Origin: Bacteroidota bacterium
GTDB lineage: Bacteria; Bacteroidota; Ignavibacteria; UBA10030; JAZGDE01
Direction: 5' to 3'
Assembly: GCA_036477295.1 (NCBI GenBank)
Contig: JAZGDE010000046.1
Location: forward strand, 13,135-77,134
DNA length: 64,000 nucleotides
The position numbers were made by a program, and so were the translations under genes. Below are positions 9,526-45,609 of the stretch, piece by piece (the stretch's first letter is position 1; each line of letters starts with the position of its first letter). Under the pieces are notes generated by a model. It was not told the DNA's origin, did no database searches, and saw nothing but the letters and a program-made list of their open reading frames with translations.

Positions 9526-10065
9526 CTACGTTGAGCCGATGTAGAGAGTTCCGGTGTGGACTTTGATCCCAAGCAGTTTCAAATAGAGGAACAGCTGCTC
9601 CTTGTGAATCAGCTGATGCTCCACCATGTGGATACAGAGTCTCCAGATTTTCTGACGGCCAATCATCGGTGAATCCAATTCTTTGTTCCGAAATTCATCC
9701 TCCGTAAGATGCCGGATGGTCTCGATCACCCTCCGCTTGGACTCCTCCAGAATCTCAACCGCCTTCTTGCCAGTTATAGGTTCCGTTCGCCGATTGCGCA
9801 AAAAAATTTCGCGCATCGAGCGAACACCCCAATCGCCCGTGCCAAATCCCCGTGCGTACAGACCAAGTGAGAGGGCAAGATGATGGAGAAGTCGCCCGAG
9901 CGTGAACATACCCTCCACCGGTGCATAGTCGAGTTTGTCGTCTGGCGCCAGCTTCATGAGTGCTTCACAAGGACGGAGCACCCAATCCAGGTACTCAAGA
10001 AATTCTTGCTTTGTCACAGGGAGTGCCTCCGATGGCAAAGTCCCGATGGGGACTTCGTCCATCAC
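9526..10065 (-). CDS. DinB/YfiT-like (DinB_2 superfamily) metal-dependent protein
   Basis: 179 aa, four-helix DinB-like pattern with conserved His residues (HHLALSL, HMVEHQLIH). Confidence 0.6.
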   Translation of the reverse strand: MMDEVPIGTLPSEALPVTKQEFLEYLDWVLRPCEALMKLAPDDKLDYAPVEGMFTLGRLLHHLALSLGLYARGFGTGDWGVRSMREIFLRNRRTEPITGKKAVEILEESKRRVIETIRHLTEDEFRNKELDSPMIGRQKIWRLCIHMVEHQLIHKEQLFLYLKLLGIKVHTGTLYIGST

Positions 10066-10112
10066 TTCGTGAGAGTCTCTTCGTTGATTCTTGGTGAATT
10101 CTTGCCTACATT

Positions 10113-29513: not shown

Positions 29514-30026
29514 ATGAAACCCTACAAAACACTTCTCGAAGAATCTCTTGAAGCCTGGGCGTACGCACGCCAGGGCGTGATCGACGAAGTGAAGAACATC
29601 CCCGCAAAGGATTTCAGCTTCCGGGCGACGCCGCAAAACCGGAGCGTGGTCGAGCTGGTGCAGCACATCATCGAATCGGGTCTGATGATGAGCGGCGAGC
29701 TCACGCGGCCGGACGGAAATTTTCTGCGCGAGTCGTACCCTCGGTTTATCAAGGAATATGCGAGTCACGTTCACAAGAGCGCGTCGAAAAGCGACTTGCT
29801 GGCATTATTGAAATCCAGCCATGCACAAGGTGACAGGAAGTTCCGCGAGGTTGGAGAGCTCTTCATGCTGCAACACATTACCCGCTTCGATGGCCTCAAG
29901 GGCACGCGGCTCGCATGGATGGGACATGGCATTTCGCACGAAGAGTACCACCGCGGGCAGTTGGCACTCTATGCCCGGCTCCTTGGTCTCGTGCCAGCGC
30001 TTACTAGACAAATCATGGGTGAATGA
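29514..30026 (+). CDS. DinB-family (DinB_2) protein
   Basis: 170 aa. Conserved His pattern (VQHIIESG, HGISHEEYHRGQL). Confidence 0.65.
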   Translation: MKPYKTLLEESLEAWAYARQGVIDEVKNIPAKDFSFRATPQNRSVVELVQHIIESGLMMSGELTRPDGNFLRESYPRFIKEYASHVHKSASKSDLLALLKSSHAQGDRKFREVGELFMLQHITRFDGLKGTRLAWMGHGISHEEYHRGQLALYARLLGLVPALTRQIMGE

Positions 30027-30039
30027 GCTAAGTTTCGTC

Positions 30040-30125
30040 CCGTCACCCGCGACGCGGTCCACTCACGAAGTGATGCCTGTGGCAAAAGTGACGGCTTCGC
30101 CGCGGGAACTTCGTGAGAAGTGACC
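30040..30125. repeat. REP-like palindromic element (CACGAAGT/ACTTCGTG cores, GGCTTCGCCGCGGGAACTTCGTG block)
   Basis: Internal hairpin ctcacgaagt...acttcgtgag. Shares a 21-nt exact inverted match, plus other motifs, with the element at 32525-32660. Confidence 0.5.
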
Positions 30126-30169
30126 CCTTTGGGGAAGAGAGAGCTTTGCCATAACGACGATTCAATCCG

Positions 30170-32347
30170 ATGTTTTCCTCTATAGATCTCAGCTTCAACG
30201 TTAACATTCTCCTCCTACTCCTGCTCGGAATCGTCTCGTTCCTGTTTTCGTTCTTCATCTACGCGCACACGGTCCCGCCCGTTCCACCCCGTCTCCGCTG
30301 GATACTTATCTCACTCCGAGCTTTGGGCGTTTTTCTGATCCTCGCCATCCTATTCGAACCTATTCTCAAACTCATCCATCGCGAGGAGAAGCCCCCGGCC
30401 ATCGTCATGCTCATCGATGACTCCAAGAGTATGGCGCTGACGGACCGACGCGGTCATCGTGCATCGACCGTTCAGGCGCTGCTGAAGAGCCCAGGACTAC
30501 AACAGCTGGGGGAAAAAGTCGCGGTCGAGCACGTCCACTTTGCACAGCTCACCCGATTCGTCGAGTCCCATCTCAACGATTCGCTCACGTTCGCAGGCGA
30601 CGCCACGAACCTCGCACAGGCCCTGACTGTTCTTGCGGAGGAATCGGAAGAACGGAACATTCAGGGGGTCATCCTGATCACGGACGGGAATTACAACGTC
30701 GGTCAGAATCCGCTTTATGCTGCAGAAACTCTCGGTAAGCCTCTCTACACCATCGGGATTGGTGATTCCTCCGAGCAAAAAGATCTCCTCATTTCAAAAC
30801 TCCTCACGAATAACATCGCTTATGTGGACAGTAAGATACCCGTATCGGTTACGATTAAGAGCTCCGGATTTGGCGGCGAGCGGGTTGAACTTTCGCTGGA
30901 TGAAGCCGGCAAGGTCATTGACCAGCAATTTCTGATCCTAAAAGAGGGAACCCAGGAATATTCCACCACCCTGTTTTTCACTCCCCACGAAGAGGGAATG
31001 AAAAAATACACTGTCCGGGTCTCCCATTTGGAGGGTGAATTGACGGTACAGAACAACATGCGCACGGTCCTCGTTAAAGTACTCAAGAGCAAGATCAAGA
31101 TACTCCTGATCGCCGGAGCACCCAGCCCAGACCTTGCGTTCCTTCGAAGGACTCTCGAGTCAGACCCGAACATTCAGGTTACGACATTCGTGCAAAAGTC
31201 TGCCAATGAGTTTTACGAAGGCCAGCCACCGAACTCAGTGTTTCAGGATCATGATGGCATCATCCTGCTCGGTTTTCCCCGGCAGGAATCTCCCTCCGGC
31301 GTGCTAGATCAAGTTCGACGAGCGGTTGATGAGGACAACCAAGCGCTGTTCGTCATCCTCACAAGGACAATGGACCTCGAACACCTTCGCTCACTGCAAC
31401 CCTACCTGCCCTTCACGGTTCAGCAGGTTCGCACGGAAGAAGTTGCCGTCCTGCCTTCTGTTCCCAAAGTCCACGAATTCCACACGCTCCTCAAGCTGCC
31501 AAGCGGGAGGAATCCTGTCGAGTTCTGGAACGCACTCCCACCTGTGTACAAAACTCAGTCGACTCTCCGTGCAAAACCCGAATCCGAGGTAATCGCATAC
31601 GTGCGCATTCAAAACCTCACCCTTCAGGAACCTCTCGTTGTTCTGAGAAAGGTGGCCCGCCGCAAATCGGTGGCCATCACCGGGTACGGCATCTGGCGAT
31701 GGAAACTGCTTGCCGAGAGCAGTTCCTCCGAGGAGGTGTTTGAACCGTTCATTGGCAACGTCGTGCGTTGGCTGACCACCCGCGAAGAGGAAAAGCAGGT
31801 CAAAGTCCGCACAACGAAGCAAATGTACAACGCGGGAGAACGAGTGGAGTTTACAGCACAGGTGTACGACGAACGGTACGATCCGGTCAGTGATGCCGAA
31901 GTCCGCGTGCGGATTCAGTCTGCGCCAGCTTTGTCGGCGGAGGAGGAATTCCTGCTCCGACCTATCGGAGAGGGACGGTTTGAAGGTGCTATCGAGAACC
32001 TGGGTGAGGGCGATTATAGCTATTCCGGTGTTGTATCCCTTGGCCGACGGCAACTCGGGGAAGATCGTGGAAGGTTTACGGTTGGTGAGCAGAATCTCGA
32101 ATTCCTCGCGACGCAGATGAATAAACCGCTGCTTCGGCAACTTGCCTACCAGACCGGCGGTCGATACTACGACCCCGAGGAGGTGGACAGCCTCGTCGAT
32201 CAGCTACTGCACAATGCCGACCTCGAGCCAAAGGAAATCGTCCGTTCCGATGAAATCGAACTCTGGAACCTTCAGCTTCTTTTGGGCGTAATCGTGCTCC
32301 TCTTTTCGACGGAGTGGTTCCTCCGCAAACGCAACGGGATGCTCTGA
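30170..32347 (+). CDS. von Willebrand factor A (vWA) domain membrane protein (BatA-like partner of MoxR)
   Basis: 725 aa. N-terminal TM helices, vWA fold (VMLIDDSKSM...ILITDGNYN), C-terminal TM. Confidence 0.7.
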   Translation: MFSSIDLSFNVNILLLLLLGIVSFLFSFFIYAHTVPPVPPRLRWILISLRALGVFLILAILFEPILKLIHREEKPPAIVMLIDDSKSMALTDRRGHRASTVQALLKSPGLQQLGEKVAVEHVHFAQLTRFVESHLNDSLTFAGDATNLAQALTVLAEESEERNIQGVILITDGNYNVGQNPLYAAETLGKPLYTIGIGDSSEQKDLLISKLLTNNIAYVDSKIPVSVTIKSSGFGGERVELSLDEAGKVIDQQFLILKEGTQEYSTTLFFTPHEEGMKKYTVRVSHLEGELTVQNNMRTVLVKVLKSKIKILLIAGAPSPDLAFLRRTLESDPNIQVTTFVQKSANEFYEGQPPNSVFQDHDGIILLGFPRQESPSGVLDQVRRAVDEDNQALFVILTRTMDLEHLRSLQPYLPFTVQQVRTEEVAVLPSVPKVHEFHTLLKLPSGRNPVEFWNALPPVYKTQSTLRAKPESEVIAYVRIQNLTLQEPLVVLRKVARRKSVAITGYGIWRWKLLAESSSSEEVFEPFIGNVVRWLTTREEEKQVKVRTTKQMYNAGERVEFTAQVYDERYDPVSDAEVRVRIQSAPALSAEEEFLLRPIGEGRFEGAIENLGEGDYSYSGVVSLGRRQLGEDRGRFTVGEQNLEFLATQMNKPLLRQLAYQTGGRYYDPEEVDSLVDQLLHNADLEPKEIVRSDEIELWNLQLLLGVIVLLFSTEWFLRKRNGML

Positions 32348-32524
32348 AACGAAACAGCCCATTCCTGAAGGGGCTGCGCCTCACCCACGCTTCCTAGGTT
32401 TCTGCTCTTGTGGCGTTTTCCGTGGTTCACCCTCACCTGTTGATCCACCGCCAGTGAGCTCCTCTTGGGAGCTCAGCAGATCTCATTGACCCTTCGGTTC
32501 ACGCGATAACTTCGCCTCAACGAG

Positions 32525-32660
32525 TTTTCCCGCTCCGACACGAAGTTCCCGCGGCGAAGCCCCGACGGCCGAAGGCCACTTCGTGGGGACTTCGTCCGTC
32601 CCTTCCCCGAAGGGGCCACTTCGTGGCGGGAAAGGGATCGCTTCGCGGGTGCGGATCTAC
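32525..32660. repeat. REP-like palindromic element cluster (repeated GAAGG(GG)CCACTTCGTGG and CACGAAGTTCCCGCGGCGAAG units)
   Basis: Lies just 3' of the gyrA stop. Inverted relative to the 30040-30125 element (cacgaagttcccgcggcgaag is the reverse complement of cttcgccgcgggaacttcgtg). Confidence 0.5.
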
Positions 32661-32700
32661 GGTCTACGACCTTGACGGGTCGAAGAGCGGTAGGGAGTTG

Positions 32701-35172
32701 TCAACCCGACTTCTCCTCGGTCTCTTTAAGCTTTGCCTCTTCGTTCTCCTCCGCAAGGACTGGTGCCACATCCGCCACCGTATCTCCCGGTTCCAATCGG
32801 ATCAAACGCACGCCCTGAGTGTTTCGCCCTGCCTCCCGGATGTCTGAGGCATGCTGGCGGATGATCATGCCACGCTCGGTCACGACCACAACGTCGTCGC
32901 TCTCCGTCACTTCCTTGATTGCTACCATCTTGCCGGTCTTATTCGTAATCTTCACGGTGATAATTCCCTTGCCGCCGCGATGGCTCACACGATAGCCCTT
33001 CACATCGCTCCGCTTGCCGAAGCCGTGCTCCGTTGCAACCAGCAATGTCGTACCGCTCTTCCTCAACGCCACCGCTCCGACGACCTTATCGCCCTTTTCG
33101 AGCACAATGGCACGCACGCCGGTCGCCGTCCGCCCCATCTGGCGTGCCTCCTTCTCGTGGAAGCGGATGGCAAGTCCGTTTCGCGTTCCGATGACGATGT
33201 GCTGCGACCCGTCCGTCATCTTGACATCAATCAGCCGGTCTGCCTTGCGCATGTTGATGGCGGCAATCCCGTTCCGACGCGGGTTCCCGTACTCCGACAG
33301 TACCGTTTTCTTGATCATCCCTTTCTCCGTCACCATCACGACATAGTGTTCATCGTCAAACTCCTGCACGTTCAAGAACGCGGTAATGTTCTCTTCGACA
33401 GTTTTTTGGATAAGATTAACGACGGACCGCCCGCGCGACATACGTCCCGCCTCCGGAAGCTCGTGCACCTTAAGCCAGTAGCATCGTCCAGCGTCGGTAA
33501 AGAAGAGCAGGTGGTCGCGCGTGGAAGCGATGAATATGTGCTCGATAAAGTCATCCTCGCGCGCCGCCACAGCTGTGACTCCCCTCCCGCCACGTCCCTG
33601 CCGTCGGTATCCACTCACCGGATAGCGCTTGATGAACCCCCCGTGGCTGATGGTAATAACCATGTCCTCTTCGGCGATGAGGTCCTCGATGCTGAACTCC
33701 TCTGCCTGCTTCACGATCTTGGTGCGCCGTTCGTCGCCGTACTTTTTCTTCAGGTCGACAAGCTCTCCCTTGATGATTTCCATTCGCCATGTCTTATTCG
33801 CCAGAATCCCTCTTAACCTCTCCATCAGTTTGATCGTTTCCTTGTATTCGTCCTCGACCTTCTGCCGCTCAAGACCGGTAAGCTTCTGCAGCCGCATTTC
33901 GAGGATCGCCTTCGCCTGCACTTCGGAGAGCTTGAAGCGACTCACCAACCCCGTCTTTGCCGTGTCGGGGTCTTTTGACTTCTTGATCAATCGAATGATT
34001 GCATCGATGCTGTCAAGCGCGACCTTATAGCCTTCGAGGATGTGTGCGCGCTTCTCGGCCTCCTCGAGTTCAAATTTCGTCCGCCGCACCACAACCTCGT
34101 GACGGTACTCGATGAAGTGCTGCATCGCCTCCTTCAGTGTCAGCACCTTCGGCACACCGTTCACGAGTGCAAGCATGTTTACGCCGAACGTTGTCTGCAT
34201 CTGGGTATGCTTGTAGAGGTTGTTCAGCACCACTTCCGGAGTGGAGTCGCGCTTCAACTCGACGACTATCCGCATCCCGTCACGGTCAGATTCATCACGG
34301 ATGTCCGATATATCCTCGATCTTCTTCTCACGCACCAAGTTGGCTATGTGTTCGATGAGCGCTGCTTTGTTGACCTGGTAGGGAATTTCAGTCACGACGA
34401 TCCTCATCCGGTCGTTCCGACCAGTTTCAATGATCGCCCGCGCTCGCACAAGGATTCGACCTCTCCCCGTCTCGAAAGCCTCCTTCACTCCTTCGTAACC
34501 GTAGATGATGCCCCCGGTCGGAAAATCTGGGGCTTTTACATATTTCATGAGCTTCTTCGAATCGAGGCTCACATTGTCGATCAGCGCGAGGAGTCCATCG
34601 ACAACCTCGTTGAGGTTATGCGGAGGGATGTTCGTTGCCATGCCGACTGCAATTCCGCTCGAGCCGTTCACAAGGAGGTTCGGAAACAGAGCAGGCAAGA
34701 TGGAGGGTTCAGTTAGCGTATCGTCAAAATTCGGGACGAGGTTGACTGTGTTCTTCTCAATATCCCGCAGCATCTCCTCAGCGATGCGACCAAGCCGAAC
34801 TTCGGTGTATCGCATGGCCGCAGGCGCATCACCGTCGACCGAGCCAAAATTTCCCTGACCGTCGATAAGCGGATACCGGAGTGAGAAACCCTGCACCATA
34901 CGGACCATCGTGTCGTAGACGGCCACGTCCCCATGGGGGTGGTACTTTCCGAGCACTTCTCCGACGATGCGTGCGCTCTTCTTGTACGGCCGGTTGCTCG
35001 CGACGCCAAGCTCGTACATGCCATACAGCACGCGCCGATGGACTGGCTTCAGCCCGTCACGAACATCGGGTAGAGCTCGCGCCACGATCACGCTCATCGC
35101 GTAATCGATGTACGAGCTCTTCATCTCCTCTTCAATGTCGACGGGAATTACCTTCTCGGTGATAGTTGCCAT
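32701..35172 (-). CDS. gyrA: DNA gyrase subunit A
   Basis: 823 aa. ...[14 protein letters not shown]... and GyrA C-terminal beta-pinwheel repeats. Confidence 0.95.
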
Positions 35173-37834: not shown

Positions 37835-38900
37835 TCAATTCCTTGAAGCGCACATGGTATCGGTACTCGTGATGAATGTTTGCCCCAACTTGTCCAGAAC
37901 CCCCAGCAGCCTTCGGGATCTTTCCAGGTCTAACTCACCGAACACATCATCGAGCAACACGAGAGGCTTTTCACCCAGGACCCCTTGCAGGTAGAGAAAT
38001 TCTGCAAGCTTCAGAGCAATCAAAAACGTCTTATGCTGACCCTGCGAAGCATAGCGCCGGATGTCAAGCCCATTGATCCGCAGATGGAAATCATCGCGAT
38101 GGGGACCCACCAACGTCGAACCGAATTTCCTCTCTTCCTCTACCCGCTCACCAAGCTCGAGTTGAAGGAGTTGCCCGATCTCTTCCGCCGTCAAACTCCG
38201 GTCAACCTCCTCGAATGGCACATAGGACAGCGCTGGTTCCTCGTCGAGCCCCATGAGCCAGCCGTATGTTTCCATGATGTGATTTCGAAATTCGCCAACA
38301 AACTGCAGACGCTGGGCAACGAGGCGGCTTCTGTACCTGACTAATTGCTCATTCCAGGATTCCAAGGCCTCGGGGCTCACTGAGCGTCCGGCCAAGCCAT
38401 TCGACAGCACTCTGTTCCGCTGCTTCACGACCTTGCGGTACTCGACGAGATCTGCACAATATCCCGCGCTCGCTTGGCAAATAACCAGGTCGACAAACCT
38501 TCGTCGTTCCGCAGGAGCTCCCCGCGTAATGCCACCCTGTTCGGGCCAGAGAATCACAGCCGGATACTTCCCGATCATCGATGACAGTCAGTCGACTCGC
38601 CCTCCGTTGACTCGCAAAAGCTTCTCCCTTCTGATGCCATCGAACCTCACATGAACGACGCTCTTTACTCCGCTGTCCGTCCGGAACTTTCCTTCGACTA
38701 CAAAATAATCCTTCCCGATGGACAGAACAACCGCATCGCTGTCCGCGCTGAAACTCCTCGTCAGCGCCAGAAAGGATATCGCCTCGAGCACACTTGTCTT
38801 GCCGGCCCTGTTCGGTCCGACGATGAGGTTTGCGCGTGGAGCCCACGCAAACACAGAATGCTCGTGATTGCGGAAGTTCTCGTAGGCTCGCTCTAAGGAT
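37835..38900 (-). pseudogene. recF: recF disrupted: in-frame TGA (38588-38590) after ~108 codons, and no start codon for the conserved N-terminal strand
   Basis: Minus-strand translation reads ...RVNGGRVD*LSSMIGKYPAVILWPEQ... in a single frame. Upstream of the first possible start (GTG 38854) the frame encodes SVESLERAYENFRNHEHSVFAWAPRANLIVGPNRAGKT, the conserved RecF N-terminus, with no ATG/GTG/TTG in frame. The ATG just upstream belongs to the dnaN C-terminus (..MPVRLNP*). Confidence 0.75.
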
Positions 38901-40005
38901 TCAACCGAACAGGCATCACAAGCATCAAGAACTCTTCCTGCTCTCTCTGCGATCCAGGCTGAACGAGCGCAGCGCGCGTCGACTCGCTGAACAGGAACAG
39001 CGCTTCGTCAGTATCGATGTGCGACAGAACATCAACGAGGTAAGCCGCGTTAAATCCGATCTCGAGCGGCTCGTAGTCATACTGGCACATCATCACTTCC
39101 CGCGCCTCTCCGCCGAAGTCGATATCCTCAGCGGAAAGCTTCAGCTCGTTTTTCTTCAACGAGAGTCGAACCTGGTGTGTAGTGAGACTCGAATACAGTG
39201 AGACCCGCCGGACCGATGCCAGCATGTCGTTCCTGTTGATCACCATTCGCTTGTCGTTGTCCTTTGGAATCACGCTCTCGTAGTTAGGATACTTCTCCTC
39301 GATTAAGCGCGAGATGAGCGTCGTGTTCCCGAACCGAAACATTACATGGGAATCATTGAGGAAAACGGTGAATGCCGATTCATCCGACGATTTCGCAATG
39401 ATGCTGAGCGCCTTTCCCGGTATCACGATGTCTTTCTCCCCATTTTTCAGGGGACTCTTCCGCTGGCTTAGCTTCACCAAGCGATGCCCGTCTGTCGAGA
39501 CAGCACACAGCTCGTCCTTCTTCATCTGAAATAACACTCCCATCATTGCCGGCCGGAGCTCATCCGTACTCACCGCAAACACTGTTTTACTGATCATTCG
39601 GCGCAGTATCTCTGCCGGCAACGTGATCTGTTCGTCCCCTTTAATCTGAGGTACGCTCGGGAACTCCTCGCTCGATTCACCAGTCAGTCGATACTCACCG
39701 GTCTCCGTCACGATCGTGACTTTGTTTGAAGGATCTGCAGTCAGCGTCACCTGCGTCTCCGGGAGTGCACGTACTGTCTCGACCACCCGACGCGCCGGCA
39801 CTGCAATCTTGCCGTCTTCGATACCCTTGACCTTGGTCGTGACCGACAGTGAAAGCTCGAGATCTGTCGCAGTAATCTTCAACTCGTCGCCTTCAAGCTC
39901 GAGCAGGAGATTTTCTAGGATAGGGAGTGTTGATTTCGATGGAACTACTCCACTTGTTTTGGAGAGTGCTTTTTGAAGTTCAGTGCTCGAAACGGTGAAT
40001 TTCAT
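38893..40005 (-). CDS. dnaN: DNA polymerase III beta sliding clamp
   Basis: 370 aa, DnaN three-domain pattern, MKFTVSSTELQKALSK start. Confidence 0.9.
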   Translation of the reverse strand: MKFTVSSTELQKALSKTSGVVPSKSTLPILENLLLELEGDELKITATDLELSLSVTTKVKGIEDGKIAVPARRVVETVRALPETQVTLTADPSNKVTIVTETGEYRLTGESSEEFPSVPQIKGDEQITLPAEILRRMISKTVFAVSTDELRPAMMGVLFQMKKDELCAVSTDGHRLVKLSQRKSPLKNGEKDIVIPGKALSIIAKSSDESAFTVFLNDSHVMFRFGNTTLISRLIEEKYPNYESVIPKDNDKRMVINRNDMLASVRRVSLYSSLTTHQVRLSLKKNELKLSAEDIDFGGEAREVMMCQYDYEPLEIGFNAAYLVDVLSHIDTDEALFLFSESTRAALVQPGSQREQEEFLMLVMPVRLNP

Positions 40006-40679
40006 CCGTTACCTCCTGTCTGGCCAGTTTGAAAAATCTAACCTTGAAATTTACGAATTTCATCCCCCAAATTCAAGCGCCGAAACTTGCTAACTCCAAT
40101 ATTTTCCAACATGTTATCCCTCCTGGCACTTCATCTTTAGCCTCCCATCACCCCAGACCACATTTATTATCCAGTCTGGACTGAATGTTGTTCTTCACAA
40201 GCATTCAGTTTCTATTCTCGCAGAGCTTTTAACTCCCCAAACATCTTATTCACCGATCACATTTGCCTCCTCCCAGCCGTTTGCTAACACACAGCAAGCC
40301 AAGACCACTTGCATTCTTTGAGAACAATATTGTACCGGCGAGTTTTGAACCAAACCACTTCATTATTGTTATAAGCCTTATAAAATGAAAAAGATTAGTA
40401 TTACTATTAGACCCGTGAGTATGTTAATAACTGTTTAATATTCGCGGATTTGACCGTAATGGTGGGAAATTTGTGTTCCTCATATAGCTAAAGAGTCTGG
40501 ATAATGGTCTTACTTTCCCACATCCGGATTGTGATTCCGATACGACAGGATTGTGAAATCAAGTTGTGAACAGTGTTTCTGGATCCTATTCACAACGTGT
40601 CAACAAGATACTGAGGGAGAAAACAAAGCCCAACCTTGGAAGGATGGGCTTCGCGTGGAAATGGATGAGCGCAAGCGGG
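40006..40679. promoter_or_regulatory. AT-rich 674-bp dnaA-dnaN intergenic region, candidate oriC DNA-unwinding module
   Basis: Markedly AT-rich relative to flanks (ttattgttataagccttataaaatgaaaaagattagtattactattag...). Degenerate DnaA-box-like 9-mers (ttatccagt, tattcacaa). No protein-coding ORF. Confidence 0.4.
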
Positions 40680-42155
40680 TTAATGGTAGAGCTGCAACCG
40701 TTTTTTGATGTCCTGGACGGTACGACTATAGCGTTCGTCCGTTTTCATCAGATCTTCAACGGACTGGTATGCATGGATGACCGTGCTATGGTCGCGTCCC
40801 CCAAAATGGAGGCCAATCGTTTTCAAGGAAGAGTTTGTCAGTTCTTTTGCGATGTACATGGCGATCTGTCGCGCGATTACGACTTCTTGTTTCCTGGTTT
40901 TTGCGCGAATGAGATCCTCGGGCGTGCCGAAATATTCGGAGACGGTGCGTTGAATATCTTCGATTGTCACATGGGCGCGGATGTCTCCGACAACGGTCTT
41001 CACGACGTGACGCGCAAGGTCGAGGGTGATCTCTTCGTTCTTGAGCGACGCGTGTGCCAGCAAGCCGATCAGGCAGCCTTCCAGTTCACGAATGTTGGAA
41101 GTCACGTGCGTTGCGATAAATTCGATGACGTCTTGCGGTAATTCAACGCCGTCATCCTCGGCTTTCTTCTGGAGGATGGCGATCCGGGTCTCGAGTTCAG
41201 GAGGCTGAATATCAGCGGTCAAGCCCCACTGGAATCGGGAAACGAGACGCTCGTCGAGGCCTTTCAGCTCCTTTGGCGAGCGATCACACGAGAGGACGAT
41301 CTGCTTCCCGAATTGGTGGAGAGTGTTGAACGTATGGAAGAAAATCTCCTGTGTTTTTTCCTTGCCGGCGAAGAACTGTATGTCATCGACGATCAGCAAG
41401 TTGATACTACGGTAAAAACTGGAGAACTCGCTGATGCGGTCGCTCTGGATTGCATCGACGAATTCGATCGTAAATTTCTCGCTGGACACGTAGAAAACTT
41501 TGTCCGCGCGTTGATGGTTTAGAGCATGGCTCCCGATGGCCTGGATCAGGTGAGTTTTGCCGAGTCCGACGCCGCCGTAGATCACGAGCGGGTTAAAGGA
41601 TGTTCCACCTGGGTTATTGGCGACTGCAACCGCAGCAGCGCGCGCGAGCTGATTACTGTCTCCTTTGATGAAGTTCTCAAATGTGTAGCGGGCGTTCAGG
41701 AAACTCCCGGTCGCTCTCCCGGCGAGCGCTGCAGGTGTTGGTGAAGTTGCCGGCGGGAGGGAATCCTTATGATATGTCGGCGGTGGACCGAGTACCTGTT
41801 TGGCAGATGGAATCGTGATCGCGTGTCTCGTAAGTTCGTCCGGGCCATCCTCTACCAGAACGGAGTACACGAGTCGGGCGTTTTCGCCGATGACCTCAGC
41901 AAGTGTCCTGTTGATGAGGGAGTAATAGTGCTCCTCCAGCCATTCGTAGAAGAATTGACTTGGTACTCGAATCGTGAGCTTATTATCCTCCAGTTTCAGT
42001 GGAACGGTTGATTCAAACCAAGTCTTAAAAGTTTGCTGGTTGATATTGTCTTTGATAATCGCTAGACATCGCGACCACACCTGCTTGACTTGGTTTTCAT
42101 TGAGTTGCTCGACCTTCCCGACTGCATCCAGTGCGGCATTCTCTTCTAGTTTCAT
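40680..42155 (-). CDS. dnaA: Chromosomal replication initiator protein DnaA
   Basis: 491 aa. AAA+ GGVGLGKTHL, DDIQF Walker B, C-terminal DnaA-box-binding HTH. Confidence 0.95.
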   Translation of the reverse strand: MKLEENAALDAVGKVEQLNENQVKQVWSRCLAIIKDNINQQTFKTWFESTVPLKLEDNKLTIRVPSQFFYEWLEEHYYSLINRTLAEVIGENARLVYSVLVEDGPDELTRHAITIPSAKQVLGPPPTYHKDSLPPATSPTPAALAGRATGSFLNARYTFENFIKGDSNQLARAAAVAVANNPGGTSFNPLVIYGGVGLGKTHLIQAIGSHALNHQRADKVFYVSSEKFTIEFVDAIQSDRISEFSSFYRSINLLIVDDIQFFAGKEKTQEIFFHTFNTLHQFGKQIVLSCDRSPKELKGLDERLVSRFQWGLTADIQPPELETRIAILQKKAEDDGVELPQDVIEFIATHVTSNIRELEGCLIGLLAHASLKNEEITLDLARHVVKTVVGDIRAHVTIEDIQRTVSEYFGTPEDLIRAKTRKQEVVIARQIAMYIAKELTNSSLKTIGLHFGGRDHSTVIHAYQSVEDLMKTDERYSRTVQDIKKRLQLYH

Positions 42156-42563
42156 GCTTTTGTCTCGGCTGAAAAACGTGAAAAAAGAGTCCCCACACCT
42201 GCAAACAACTTATTCACATGGGCAGCGCCATTGCCCTCGCTTGACCACTCTATGGCCAAATGGGAACTGACAACGTGGACACCCCTTGTTCACGAGAGCA
42301 AGTTATCTCTAACCTCTTAAACAATCTAGGGTTATGGGAGGAGGCTGAGCGGTTATCCACAAGGTATTGGCGGCGCGTGAAGGCCAACCGGCACGTCAAA
42401 ACTGCACCTTGAACAAGGCCCAAAAAGTAAGTAACATTTTATCAACAAACGATTTATGCCGTAATTCATACAGATTATACAAAGTTTCGGGTGTGTAGGC
42501 AAGGGAAAAATTTTTGTTTTTTTCGGTTTGAGTTGTATTTGTGGCACATTTTTTATATGTTGA
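42156..42563. promoter_or_regulatory. dnaA/rpmH divergent control region with DnaA boxes and AT-rich tract (oriC / dnaA autoregulation candidate)
   Basis: Perfect TTATCCACA at 42336-42344. One-mismatch boxes TTATTCACA (42204-42212) and TTATCAACA (42439-42447). AT-rich run 42450-42560. Confidence 0.55.
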
Positions 42564-42647
42564 ATGTCGTTCGGCGAGAGGATTGCTGCTAGAGCAAACC
42601 TCTTTTTTTTCGTCAAGGGAGTATTCAGTAGGAGATGCATATCACAG

Positions 42648-42794
42648 ATGAAGCCGACGTATCAACCGAGCATCCGGAAGCGAAAAAATACACACGGCTT
42701 TCGTGCGCGCATGAAATCGAAGAGCGGCCGGAGAGTGGTGGCGCAGCGCAGAGCGAAGGGTCGTTGGAAGTTAACGGTCAGCGACGAACGATAA
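42648..42794 (+). CDS. rpmH: 50S ribosomal protein L34
   Basis: [44 protein letters not shown] preceded by AGGAG. The ORF-track ORF is N-terminally over-extended. Confidence 0.9.
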
Positions 42795-42814
42795 TCAACC
42801 GGCGAACGATTCCT

Positions 42815-43261
42815 ATGTCGGCGGAGGTTCTCAAGTCGCACGGCACCGGGAGGACTCTCAAGAAGCATGAAATCCTTCGCGGGCATAGACAATTTGACCG
42901 TGCGATAACAGGGGGGAAATCGCTCTTCGGAGAGCTTCTGCGCTGCTTCGTTTCTCCTTCGGGCTTTGGAGGAGATCTCGGGCGAGACATGGTGAAGATC
43001 GGGTTCGCCGTTAGCCGGAAGATCCGAAAATCCAGCGTGCGAAATCGACTCAAGCGGATAATGCGGGAAGTCTATCGGATGCACAAGGAGCGGCTGCATC
43101 AGCTCGCGATACGGAATTCTCAGCGACTTGAGCTCGTGCTGGTGTTCAGGGGAAACACTGACAGCGACCCCAAGAAAGTTCCATACGAACTCATCGAAAA
43201 GGATTTTCTGCGCATCGTCGATCGACTCGAGCGCGGCTTGGACGGAGCGGGATTCGTATGA
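42815..43261 (+). CDS. rnpA: Ribonuclease P protein component
   Basis: Start placed at [10 protein letters not shown] after the rpmH stop. [13 protein letters not shown]...[24 protein letters not shown] typical of RnpA. Confidence 0.85.
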
Positions 43262-45301: not shown

Positions 45302-45609
45302 AAAAGCGGGCGCTCAGAATTATCCAGCTCTTATTACTAAGCCTCCAAGCGTCAATCCCGCCTTGAATAGGTCAATAGGAGTTCCAAATCGCGCAGCGCA
45401 ATCCTCAGTATTACCGAGGTGAACGCAATGGTTGCGAACCCTTTATCTAAGCAAAATTAGCCACTTCGTCTTCGCAAACCTTTGTGCTAAGTTTAAGGAA
45501 GCACGCCGGCCTCTTACCTATAAGAAAATACGTTGCTCGCAAACTGACCAGCATCCTGTCCTGCTCCTTATCTTCCCGTAGCTGTTCCCTCGGGAGCTTC
45601 GTATGCGAT

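Follow-up and report, generated by a model that had tools for sequence, protein, structure and literature searches.

Mosaic palindromic repeats beside a vWA-like gene and at the truncated 3' end of gyrA in the origin region of an uncultured Bacteroidota

Among the described systems of small palindromic repeats, the closest to the sequences analysed here are the REP, BIME and REPIN elements with their RAYT transposases (Bertels & Rainey, PMC3116915, PMC3337134; PMC5581495), the bacterial MITEs (miniature transposable elements with inverted repeats), e.g. Correia/NEMIS, ERIC/IRU and RUP (Delihas review, PMC2229807; PMC10969869), and the Rickettsia palindromic elements (RPEs; Ogata et al. 2000, as reviewed in PMC2229807). 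The sequences in question, termed elements A and B, are two palindrome-rich stretches on either side of the gene for a vWA-like membrane protein (the vWA gene) in a 64-kb window, i.e. the whole stretch of DNA that was analysed, which belongs to a metagenomic contig of an uncultured Bacteroidota and spans the dnaA-dnaN-gyrB-gyrA origin region. We know of no REP-like elements described in this phylum. Our preferred reading, to which we give a probability of about 0.7, is that A and B both belong to a family of mosaic palindromic repeats that are small, GC-rich, non-coding and dispersed, that B truncated gyrA and that the vWA gene was not mobilised.

As in the REP, BIME and REPIN elements, we have here short GC-rich imperfect palindromes, which are non-coding, lie at gene ends and between converging genes in either orientation, and form mosaics of several hairpin motifs with conserved ends and a variable context. 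The unit here is longer, however (72-113 nt), and a GTAG-type head is not recognised in it. Moreover, 2423 nt and one complete gene separate A from B, which hence form no doublet of the REPIN kind; each element does hold internal inverted blocks, but a symmetric doublet of a single REP was not found. With the MITEs, which are non-autonomous elements of 100-200 nt, the sequences have in common the end-to-end folding into a long stem-loop, the polymorphism of filled versus empty sites and the occasional insertion at a gene end that alters the C-terminus. By contrast with the MITEs, neither clear inverted repeats at the true termini nor a clean target-site duplication nor a parent insertion sequence was found here, and there was no related insertion sequence in the DNA examined.

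The two elements are delimited as follows, with all positions being those of the window.

30044-30115, plus strand: core of element A, 72 nt
30044-30060, plus strand: 5' block of element A, CACCCGCGACGCGGTCC
30062-30071, plus strand: inner hairpin arm of element A, CTCACGAAGT
30093-30115, plus strand: 3' block of element A, GGCTTCGCCGCGGGAACTTCGTG
32651-32539, minus strand: core of element B, 113 nt, where the minus-strand reading gives 5' and 3' blocks as in A
Interior of element B, minus strand: enlarged relative to A by extra mini-hairpins, namely two copies of GGCCACTTCGTGG plus CCCCGAAGGGG and GGCCGAAGGCC

Element A is placed 18 nt past the stop codon of a DinB-family gene and 55 nt ahead of the start of the vWA gene, and in the window both A and B are located 3' of a stop codon and in sense orientation to the upstream gene. 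The block GGCTTCGCCGCGGGAACTTCGTG (30093-30115) returns at 32539-32561 as its reverse complement, with all 23 nt matching. The first-pass annotation had described an exactly inverted block of 21 nt at this place; the block is real, its true length being 23 nt rather than 21, and the 21-mer occurs at only these two sites in the window even when up to three mismatches are allowed, with 0 expected in shuffles. A second inverted block of 17 nt, CACCCGCGA(C/A)GCG(G/A)TCC, relates 30044-30060 to 32635-32651 with 88% complementarity, and CACGAAGT is found nine times in the window versus 2.7 +/- 1.5 expected, with five of the nine lying within A and B. The 23-nt and 17-nt inverted blocks and the excess of CACGAAGT thus confirm the earlier proposal of related palindrome-rich sequence in both spacers. 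The motif gccacttcgtc near 45465, which had been counted as a further relative, does not belong with them: it has at least three mismatches to the 13-mer, and none of the other blocks is present in its surroundings. When A is aligned with B in the minus-strand reading the two are colinear, both end blocks being common and the interiors different, and inside B the sequence GGCCACTTCGTGG is exactly duplicated, at 32574 and 32614.

Both elements are built as chains of mini-palindromes of the form N3-4-TTC/GAA-N3-4, for example CCAC-TTC-GTGG, GGCC-GAA-GGCC, CCCC-GAA-GGGG, GGAC-TTC-GTCC and CGGC-TTC-GCCG. TTC/GAA-centred mini-palindromes with 4-bp arms number 28 in the window versus 7 +/- 2.8 in shuffles and are clustered in B (5), in A (2) and at 10050-10072 (2), while in B the density of the pentamers CTTCG/CGAAG rises to 8 per 120 nt, versus a window mean of 0.5. 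The variable interior is enclosed by base pairing between CCCGCG..AAGC of the 5' block and GCTT(CGC)CGCGGG of the 3' block, and the conserved sequence reaches past these pairing end blocks (AACTTCGTG). The predicted folds of A and B are better than those of shuffles on either strand (z from -2.3 to -2.9), and the basic unit of 55 nt has a fold z of -3.1. In Rfam 15 no match at the gathering threshold was present anywhere in the window, and a permissive Rfam scan of 29950-32800 gave two chance-level matches (E > 2), both outside the elements. There were no tRNA or tmRNA genes, a simple scan of A and B gave neither a T-run terminator signature nor a promoter, and no core sites of the integron attC type (GTTRRRY) were spotted by eye. 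A blastn search of the plasmids in PLSDB gave no match to the elements, and of the viral-contig scans one was without match and the other gave one chance match in coding sequence. What is documented here is a putative palindromic repeat family with no match in Rfam or among the PLSDB plasmids.

Related copies are also present in a second genome. An exact 23-mer scan, covering one genome per species, gave one match, which is in the metagenome-assembled genome (MAG) K_3_bin.67 of another uncultured Bacteroidota (locus L002). The copy there, L002a, with the sequence CACCCGCGAAGC[CCCGTGAACCGGGGCGAAGC]GATCCCTTTCCCGAAGGGACGGCTTCGCCGCGGGAACTTCGTG, lies between deoC and a SPOR-domain gene. It has both end blocks as in A and B and the simplest interior of the three, it is identical to A over 27 nt and to B over a further 20 nt, and it gives a compact nested hairpin with a fold z of -4.9. 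At a distance of 1.2 kb, between valS and deoC, there is a partial second copy, GGCTTCGCCGC-ACTTCGTGACACTTCGTGGTCGGGAC, which makes two copies in 8 kb of K_3_bin.67. Both are intergenic and antisense to their neighbours (the SPOR-domain gene, deoC and valS), so that the family is found at the ends of unrelated housekeeping genes and in either orientation. With the end blocks recurring in another MAG beside such genes, the first-pass term of REP-like palindromic elements is a fair one. As to the extragenic location that is typical of REPs, A and the two L002 copies are intergenic, whereas B is in former gyrA coding sequence. Judged from their sequences, A, B and the L002 copies make up one dispersed family, whose mosaic palindromic repeats are comparable to REP/BIME elements or MITEs.

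The copies differ in their interiors in a nested manner. Compared with B, L002a has one more hairpin, of 14 nt and flanked by duplicated CGAAGC, and compared with L002a, B has two further hairpin-rich inserts. A similar nesting is reportedly found in the very small dispersed repeats (SDRs) of cyanobacteria, where Elhai and co-workers are said to have described, in 2008, tiny hairpin units nested inside other repeat copies; the likeness would lie in the 14-nt hairpin of L002a with its duplicated CGAAGC and in the extra mini-hairpins of B, while the phylum and the sequences are different. Based on our model, a member of the family would carry two conserved blocks, CACCCGCGAAGC... on the 5' side and GGCTTCGCCGCGGGAACTTCGTG on the 3' side, paired through CCCGCG/CGCGGG plus AAGC/GCTT, around a variable interior of N3-4-TTC/GAA-N3-4 mini-hairpins, with the members differing by nested gain and loss. 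New sites would be reached either through a transposase that acts in trans and recognises the ends of the hairpins, or through template-switch copying.

We now consider the 3' end of gyrA, where the following features are present.

32701-35172, minus strand: gyrA at present, 823 aa, ending in ...EEKSG, without the basic tail
32513-32703, minus strand: inserted block, present in the window and not in the gyrA 3' ends of the three closest relatives available (loci L003, L004 and L005)
32657-32693, no strand assigned: accessory imperfect hairpin, CTACGGTCTACGACC / GGTCGAAGAGCGGTAG, between the new stop and the B core
32381-32512, minus strand: gyrA tail remnant, KLSREPKGQ*DLLSSQEELTGGGSTGEGEPRKTPQEQKPRKRG*, out of frame and with an internal TGA
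32355-32376, no strand assigned: hairpin CAGCCC...GGGCTG, with the vWA stop on one side and the ancestral stop of gyrA on the other, kept in L003 and L004

In the nucleotide alignment the insertion is a single clean block of ~175-190 nt with an uncertain right boundary (~32513-32530), and it contains the B core, the accessory hairpin and a 3' flank; GCGGGAAA of this flank pairs with TTTCCCGC of the core. The gyrA stop codon TGA (32701-32703) is formed by the first three bases of the insertion, directly after EEKSG, and past it the reading frame is open for 76 codons. Up to its last residue the GyrA of the window is 86-89% identical to those of L003-L005, in which gyrA runs past EEKSG/EETSR/EEKSR by 12-44 more residues and ends in a basic motif (...KAKKRG*, ...PNKGG* and ...KRKRRG*). 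In the wider lineage, ~60 GyrA fragments have mostly a long tail that passes from acidic to basic; a protein search with the C-terminal 250 aa of GyrA gave relatives of at most 71% identity, with L003-L005 not among them.

The lost tail is still recognisable downstream of B. The remnant at 32381-32512 encodes ...EPRKTPQEQKPRKRG* in a frame that differs from that of gyrA, and the lineage-typical tail end ...KPRKRG* persists in it. Its 132 nt align with the L003 tail without gaps at ~61% identity, with a score of 23 versus -22 +/- 5.5 for shuffles, and the stop codon is at an equal distance in both. The hairpin at 32355-32376 is probably the original shared terminator of the converging vWA and gyrA genes. 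In the window gyrA is truncated, and the 353-nt vWA-gyrA 'spacer' consists of the terminator hairpin, the stranded tail remnant and the insertion. Most of what had earlier been described as the spacer 3' of gyrA is not ancestral spacer, and for annotation the 353 nt should be taken as mostly insertion plus pseudo-coding remnant. Rescue of the tail by stop read-through or frameshifting was considered and rejected, as two TGA codons would have to be read through and a frameshift would have to occur as well. It is also noted that the tail remnant contains a perfect 7-bp hairpin, GAGCTCC-TCTTG-GGAGCTC (32457-32475), with no counterpart in L003 when the two are aligned.

We propose that B came to, or grew in, the gyrA 3' end, where the frame after ...EEKSG would have been replaced by the TGA of B and the tail-coding remnant would have been left stranded downstream. 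As with the RPEs, a palindromic repeat would then be located in a conserved housekeeping gene and be tolerated there because the region is permissive; unlike the RPEs, which insert in frame and are translated, the element here brings a stop in its first three bases and removes the tail. The locus would be a clear case, found in nature, of an essential gene being cut short by such a repeat at a permissive site, here the disordered GyrA tail. The acidic tail of E. coli GyrA modulates gyrase activity. If the tail has such a role here too, the present organism would be a natural GyrA tail-deletion variant. We infer, rather than observe, the mobility of the elements and any effect of theirs on transcription or on gyrase.

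Because the sequence comes from a metagenomic contig, and because repeats are classic sites of misassembly, it may be asked whether a chimeric join or a collapsed repeat in the MAG contig has feigned the interruption of gyrA. However, both flanks of the insertion are colinear with the relatives, and the remnant resumes exactly where the tail should, with the stop codon spaced from the vWA terminator hairpin by the conserved distance. A chimera would not keep this colinearity of the flanks and this stop distance, so such an artefact is extremely improbable.

The gene between the elements and the gene upstream of A are the following.

30170-32347, plus strand: gene for the vWA-like membrane protein (725 aa), not cargo but an ancestral resident of this locus
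29514-30026, plus strand: DinB-family gene upstream of element A, with presence varying among the relatives

The first-pass annotation had found the arrangement reminiscent of an inverted-repeat-bounded cassette, in which case A and B would be the ends of a mobile unit that brought the vWA gene here, and had suggested that related strains be compared for presence or absence of this gene. In favour of a cassette, a perfect 23-nt inverted repeat and a second block of 17 nt bracket one gene, and A and B are the only two full copies within the 64-kb window. By contrast, in L003, L004 and L005 (79%, 77% and 68% vWA identity) the vWA gene is present at the same position and converges on gyrA, with gaps of 72, 33 and 52 nt and no flanking repeats, and in a 49% relative (L128) MoxR, the S8 peptidase and vWA directly adjoin one another, the gap ahead of vWA being 10 nt. 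Full-length homologues of the protein (~720 aa) number more than 230 in MAGs of Bacteroidota, Ignavibacteria and Kapabacteria, their identities falling off gradually as for vertical inheritance. The GC content is 0.53 across the vWA gene, the same as in the flanks, with no compositional anomaly. Moreover, the repeats do not abut the gene: B is inside gyrA, and a stretch of 165 nt (32348-32512), made up of the ancestral hairpin and the gyrA-tail remnant, lies between vWA and the supposed right end. The 86-89% identity of GyrA to that of L003-L005 is also consistent with vertical descent of the whole neighbourhood. We regard mobilisation of the vWA gene by these repeats as very improbable, and the main value of the analysis lies in the removal of this false lead, i.e. 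of the vWA gene as a mobile cassette, and in the documentation of the gyrA tail truncation.

The variable gene at the locus is DinB, not vWA. Both the window and L004 have the DinB gene intact; L003 lacks it and has a 27-nt spacer instead (L003:1447-1473), while in the L005 spacer (L005:944-1107) it is cut to an N-terminal remnant, KPYRTILEESLEAWAYA..., encoding KPYRTILEESLEAWAYAPHRVIDEAANIP. The DinB-vWA spacer of L004 contains no A-like sequence and has no usable flank homology when aligned to that of the window. A sits in the DinB-vWA spacer of a MoxR-S8-(DinB)-vWA string, and in our model the inverted layout around vWA would be a by-product of two nearby insertions, one of them possibly copied from the other. 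Filled sites are thus set against empty ones at both elements, with L003, L004 and L005 lacking the gyrA block and L004 lacking A, where it should be borne in mind that the vWA identity of these relatives is just 68-79%.

The absence of the elements from the relatives also bears on whether they are structures kept to serve the host, be it by terminating or attenuating transcription, by stabilising mRNA 3' ends or by binding proteins, with A acting after DinB and B after gyrA; roles of this kind are known for some REP/BIME sequences. Both elements lie just past a stop codon in the orientation of the upstream gene and fold better than shuffles (z about -2.3 to -2.9), and copies from two MAGs are identical over 27 nt, which points to constraint on the 3' block; effects of A and B on termination or transcript stability are possible. 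However, the orthologous sites in the relatives are without the elements, with a different conserved hairpin standing between vWA and gyrA, the L002 copies are antisense to the flanking genes, and there is neither a T-run terminator signature nor an Rfam family match. From the antisense L002 copies and the absence in relatives we argue against a conserved host function and consider this explanation rather unlikely. Note that it is compatible with a mobile origin and competes with the preferred reading only over why the elements persist.

Returning to the reading of A and B as members of a dispersed family, one of which truncated gyrA, several points weigh against it. In ~73 kb of the source genome there are only two full copies and one fragment, and the chance that both full copies flank one gene is, by a rough estimate, ~1 in 25-30. 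No transposase, with a Y1_Tnp or any other domain, was present in the genes inspected. The termini and terminal inverted repeats of the elements are not definable from the alignments, and the gyrA junctions offer as direct repeats only GTTGA or CGGG(T/A), which are short and ambiguous. The closest empty-site relative has just 79% vWA identity, and therefore the gyrA insertion could have been built up stepwise rather than in one event. A metagenome scan with the pattern GGCTTCGCCGCN{0,6}ACTTCGTG, which is too loose, gave at least 120 loci, nearly all of them chance matches in GC-rich coding sequence (GFAA..FV motifs); among the matches listed none has the GGGA spacer, and re-screening those listed with the full elements gave nothing beyond the selection block and hence no added members. 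The genes inspected also include no RAYT, which is a further difference from the REP/REPIN-RAYT systems, where a single-copy gene for this Y1 transposase is flanked by the repeats and the palindrome occurs in tens to hundreds of copies per genome. Group 4 RAYTs are common in Chlorobia (PMC5581495), and nothing connects them to the repeat family here.

Since two adjacent full copies are improbable at random, local copying between the sites is plausible. In its strict form this would mean that one site was copied from the other, 2.4 kb away, by duplication or gene conversion, with hairpin template switching during replication and no dedicated mobility machinery. The only two full copies are indeed adjacent, and they agree over the 23 nt of the 3' block but differ in the interior. 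The gyrA tail at the junction, GAAGTTATCGCG (window 32500-32515), is complementary to the 3' block of the element at 10 of 12 positions and pairs with it in the predicted fold, and at the orthologous junction point of L004 (L004:3954-3966) there is GAAGTTCCCGCGG, with 13 nt identical to the element core in the opposite orientation; such microhomology could prime copying. On the other hand, the end blocks are present in another MAG at unrelated genes, which means that at least some of the spread was not local. Copying from site to site would explain the neighbouring full copies best, but as an account of the elements without any mobility machinery it is quite unlikely.

The same junction sequences hint that microhomology or half-site similarity guides the targeting of the repeats. 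GAAGTT(C/A)(C/T)CGCG is found at the orthologous gyrA site in relatives. The 13-nt match at the junction is only marginally beyond chance, and it may be a target half-site or a coincidence. In a tentative extension of the preferred reading, possible but doubtful, the repeats would be an undescribed mini-hairpin family that has grown by nested insertion of N3-4-TTC/GAA-N3-4 units, sometimes with a short duplication such as CGAAGC, and that was recently active at the essential gyrA gene, deleting the lineage-wide basic tail, with the insertion perhaps guided by similarity to the 3' block.

Apart from A and B, the window contains one short piece related to them.

10040-10075, minus strand: short fragment with sequence matches to A and B, at the 5' end of a second gene of the DinB family

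In this fragment 14 nt of A recur unchanged as CTCACGAAGTGATG, and 14 nt of B as GGACGAAGTCCCCA. The annotated ATG (10062) of the second DinB-family gene (9526-10062, minus strand) falls within it. A GTG at 10017, preceded by GGAGG, would give the N-terminus MTKQEFLEY..., which, judged by eye, looks more like an ordinary start of the DinB family, and the first 15 annotated codons may be a repeat-derived 5' untranslated region. There is also a solitary mini-hairpin, TCCCTTCGGGA, at 845-862 in the 75-nt rpoZ-coaBC spacer, which matches the L002 inner hairpin at 17 of 18 nt and may be a solo unit of the repeat family. In the metagenome scan, a few loci (L027:1447-1465, L046:2076-2094, L049:2858-2876, L079:280-298, L064, L100 and L106) have GGCTTCGCCGC(0-5 nt)ACTTCGTG in non-coding-looking, hairpin-rich contexts, several with zero gap as in the partial copy of L002; these loci could be distantly related to the family or be GC-rich palindromes that have nothing to do with it.

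As to the neighbouring genes, it is noted that the Pfam scores of the 'vWA' protein are below threshold (VWA 22.0 bits versus a cut-off of 23.8; VWA_2 21.4 versus 27) and that most of its 725 residues are without a Pfam match, though the family is widespread and length-conserved. In L128 a reverse-transcriptase gene of the RVT_1 type (L128:12445-13707), with no counterpart in the window, lies ~4 kb downstream of the vWA homologue. Finally, in the origin region (~38000-43000), with rnpA, yidC, mnmE and mnmG on one side and dnaA, dnaN, gyrB and gyrA on the other, the cumulative GC skew has its minimum at ~40-42 kb, and the GC content dips to 0.50 there.

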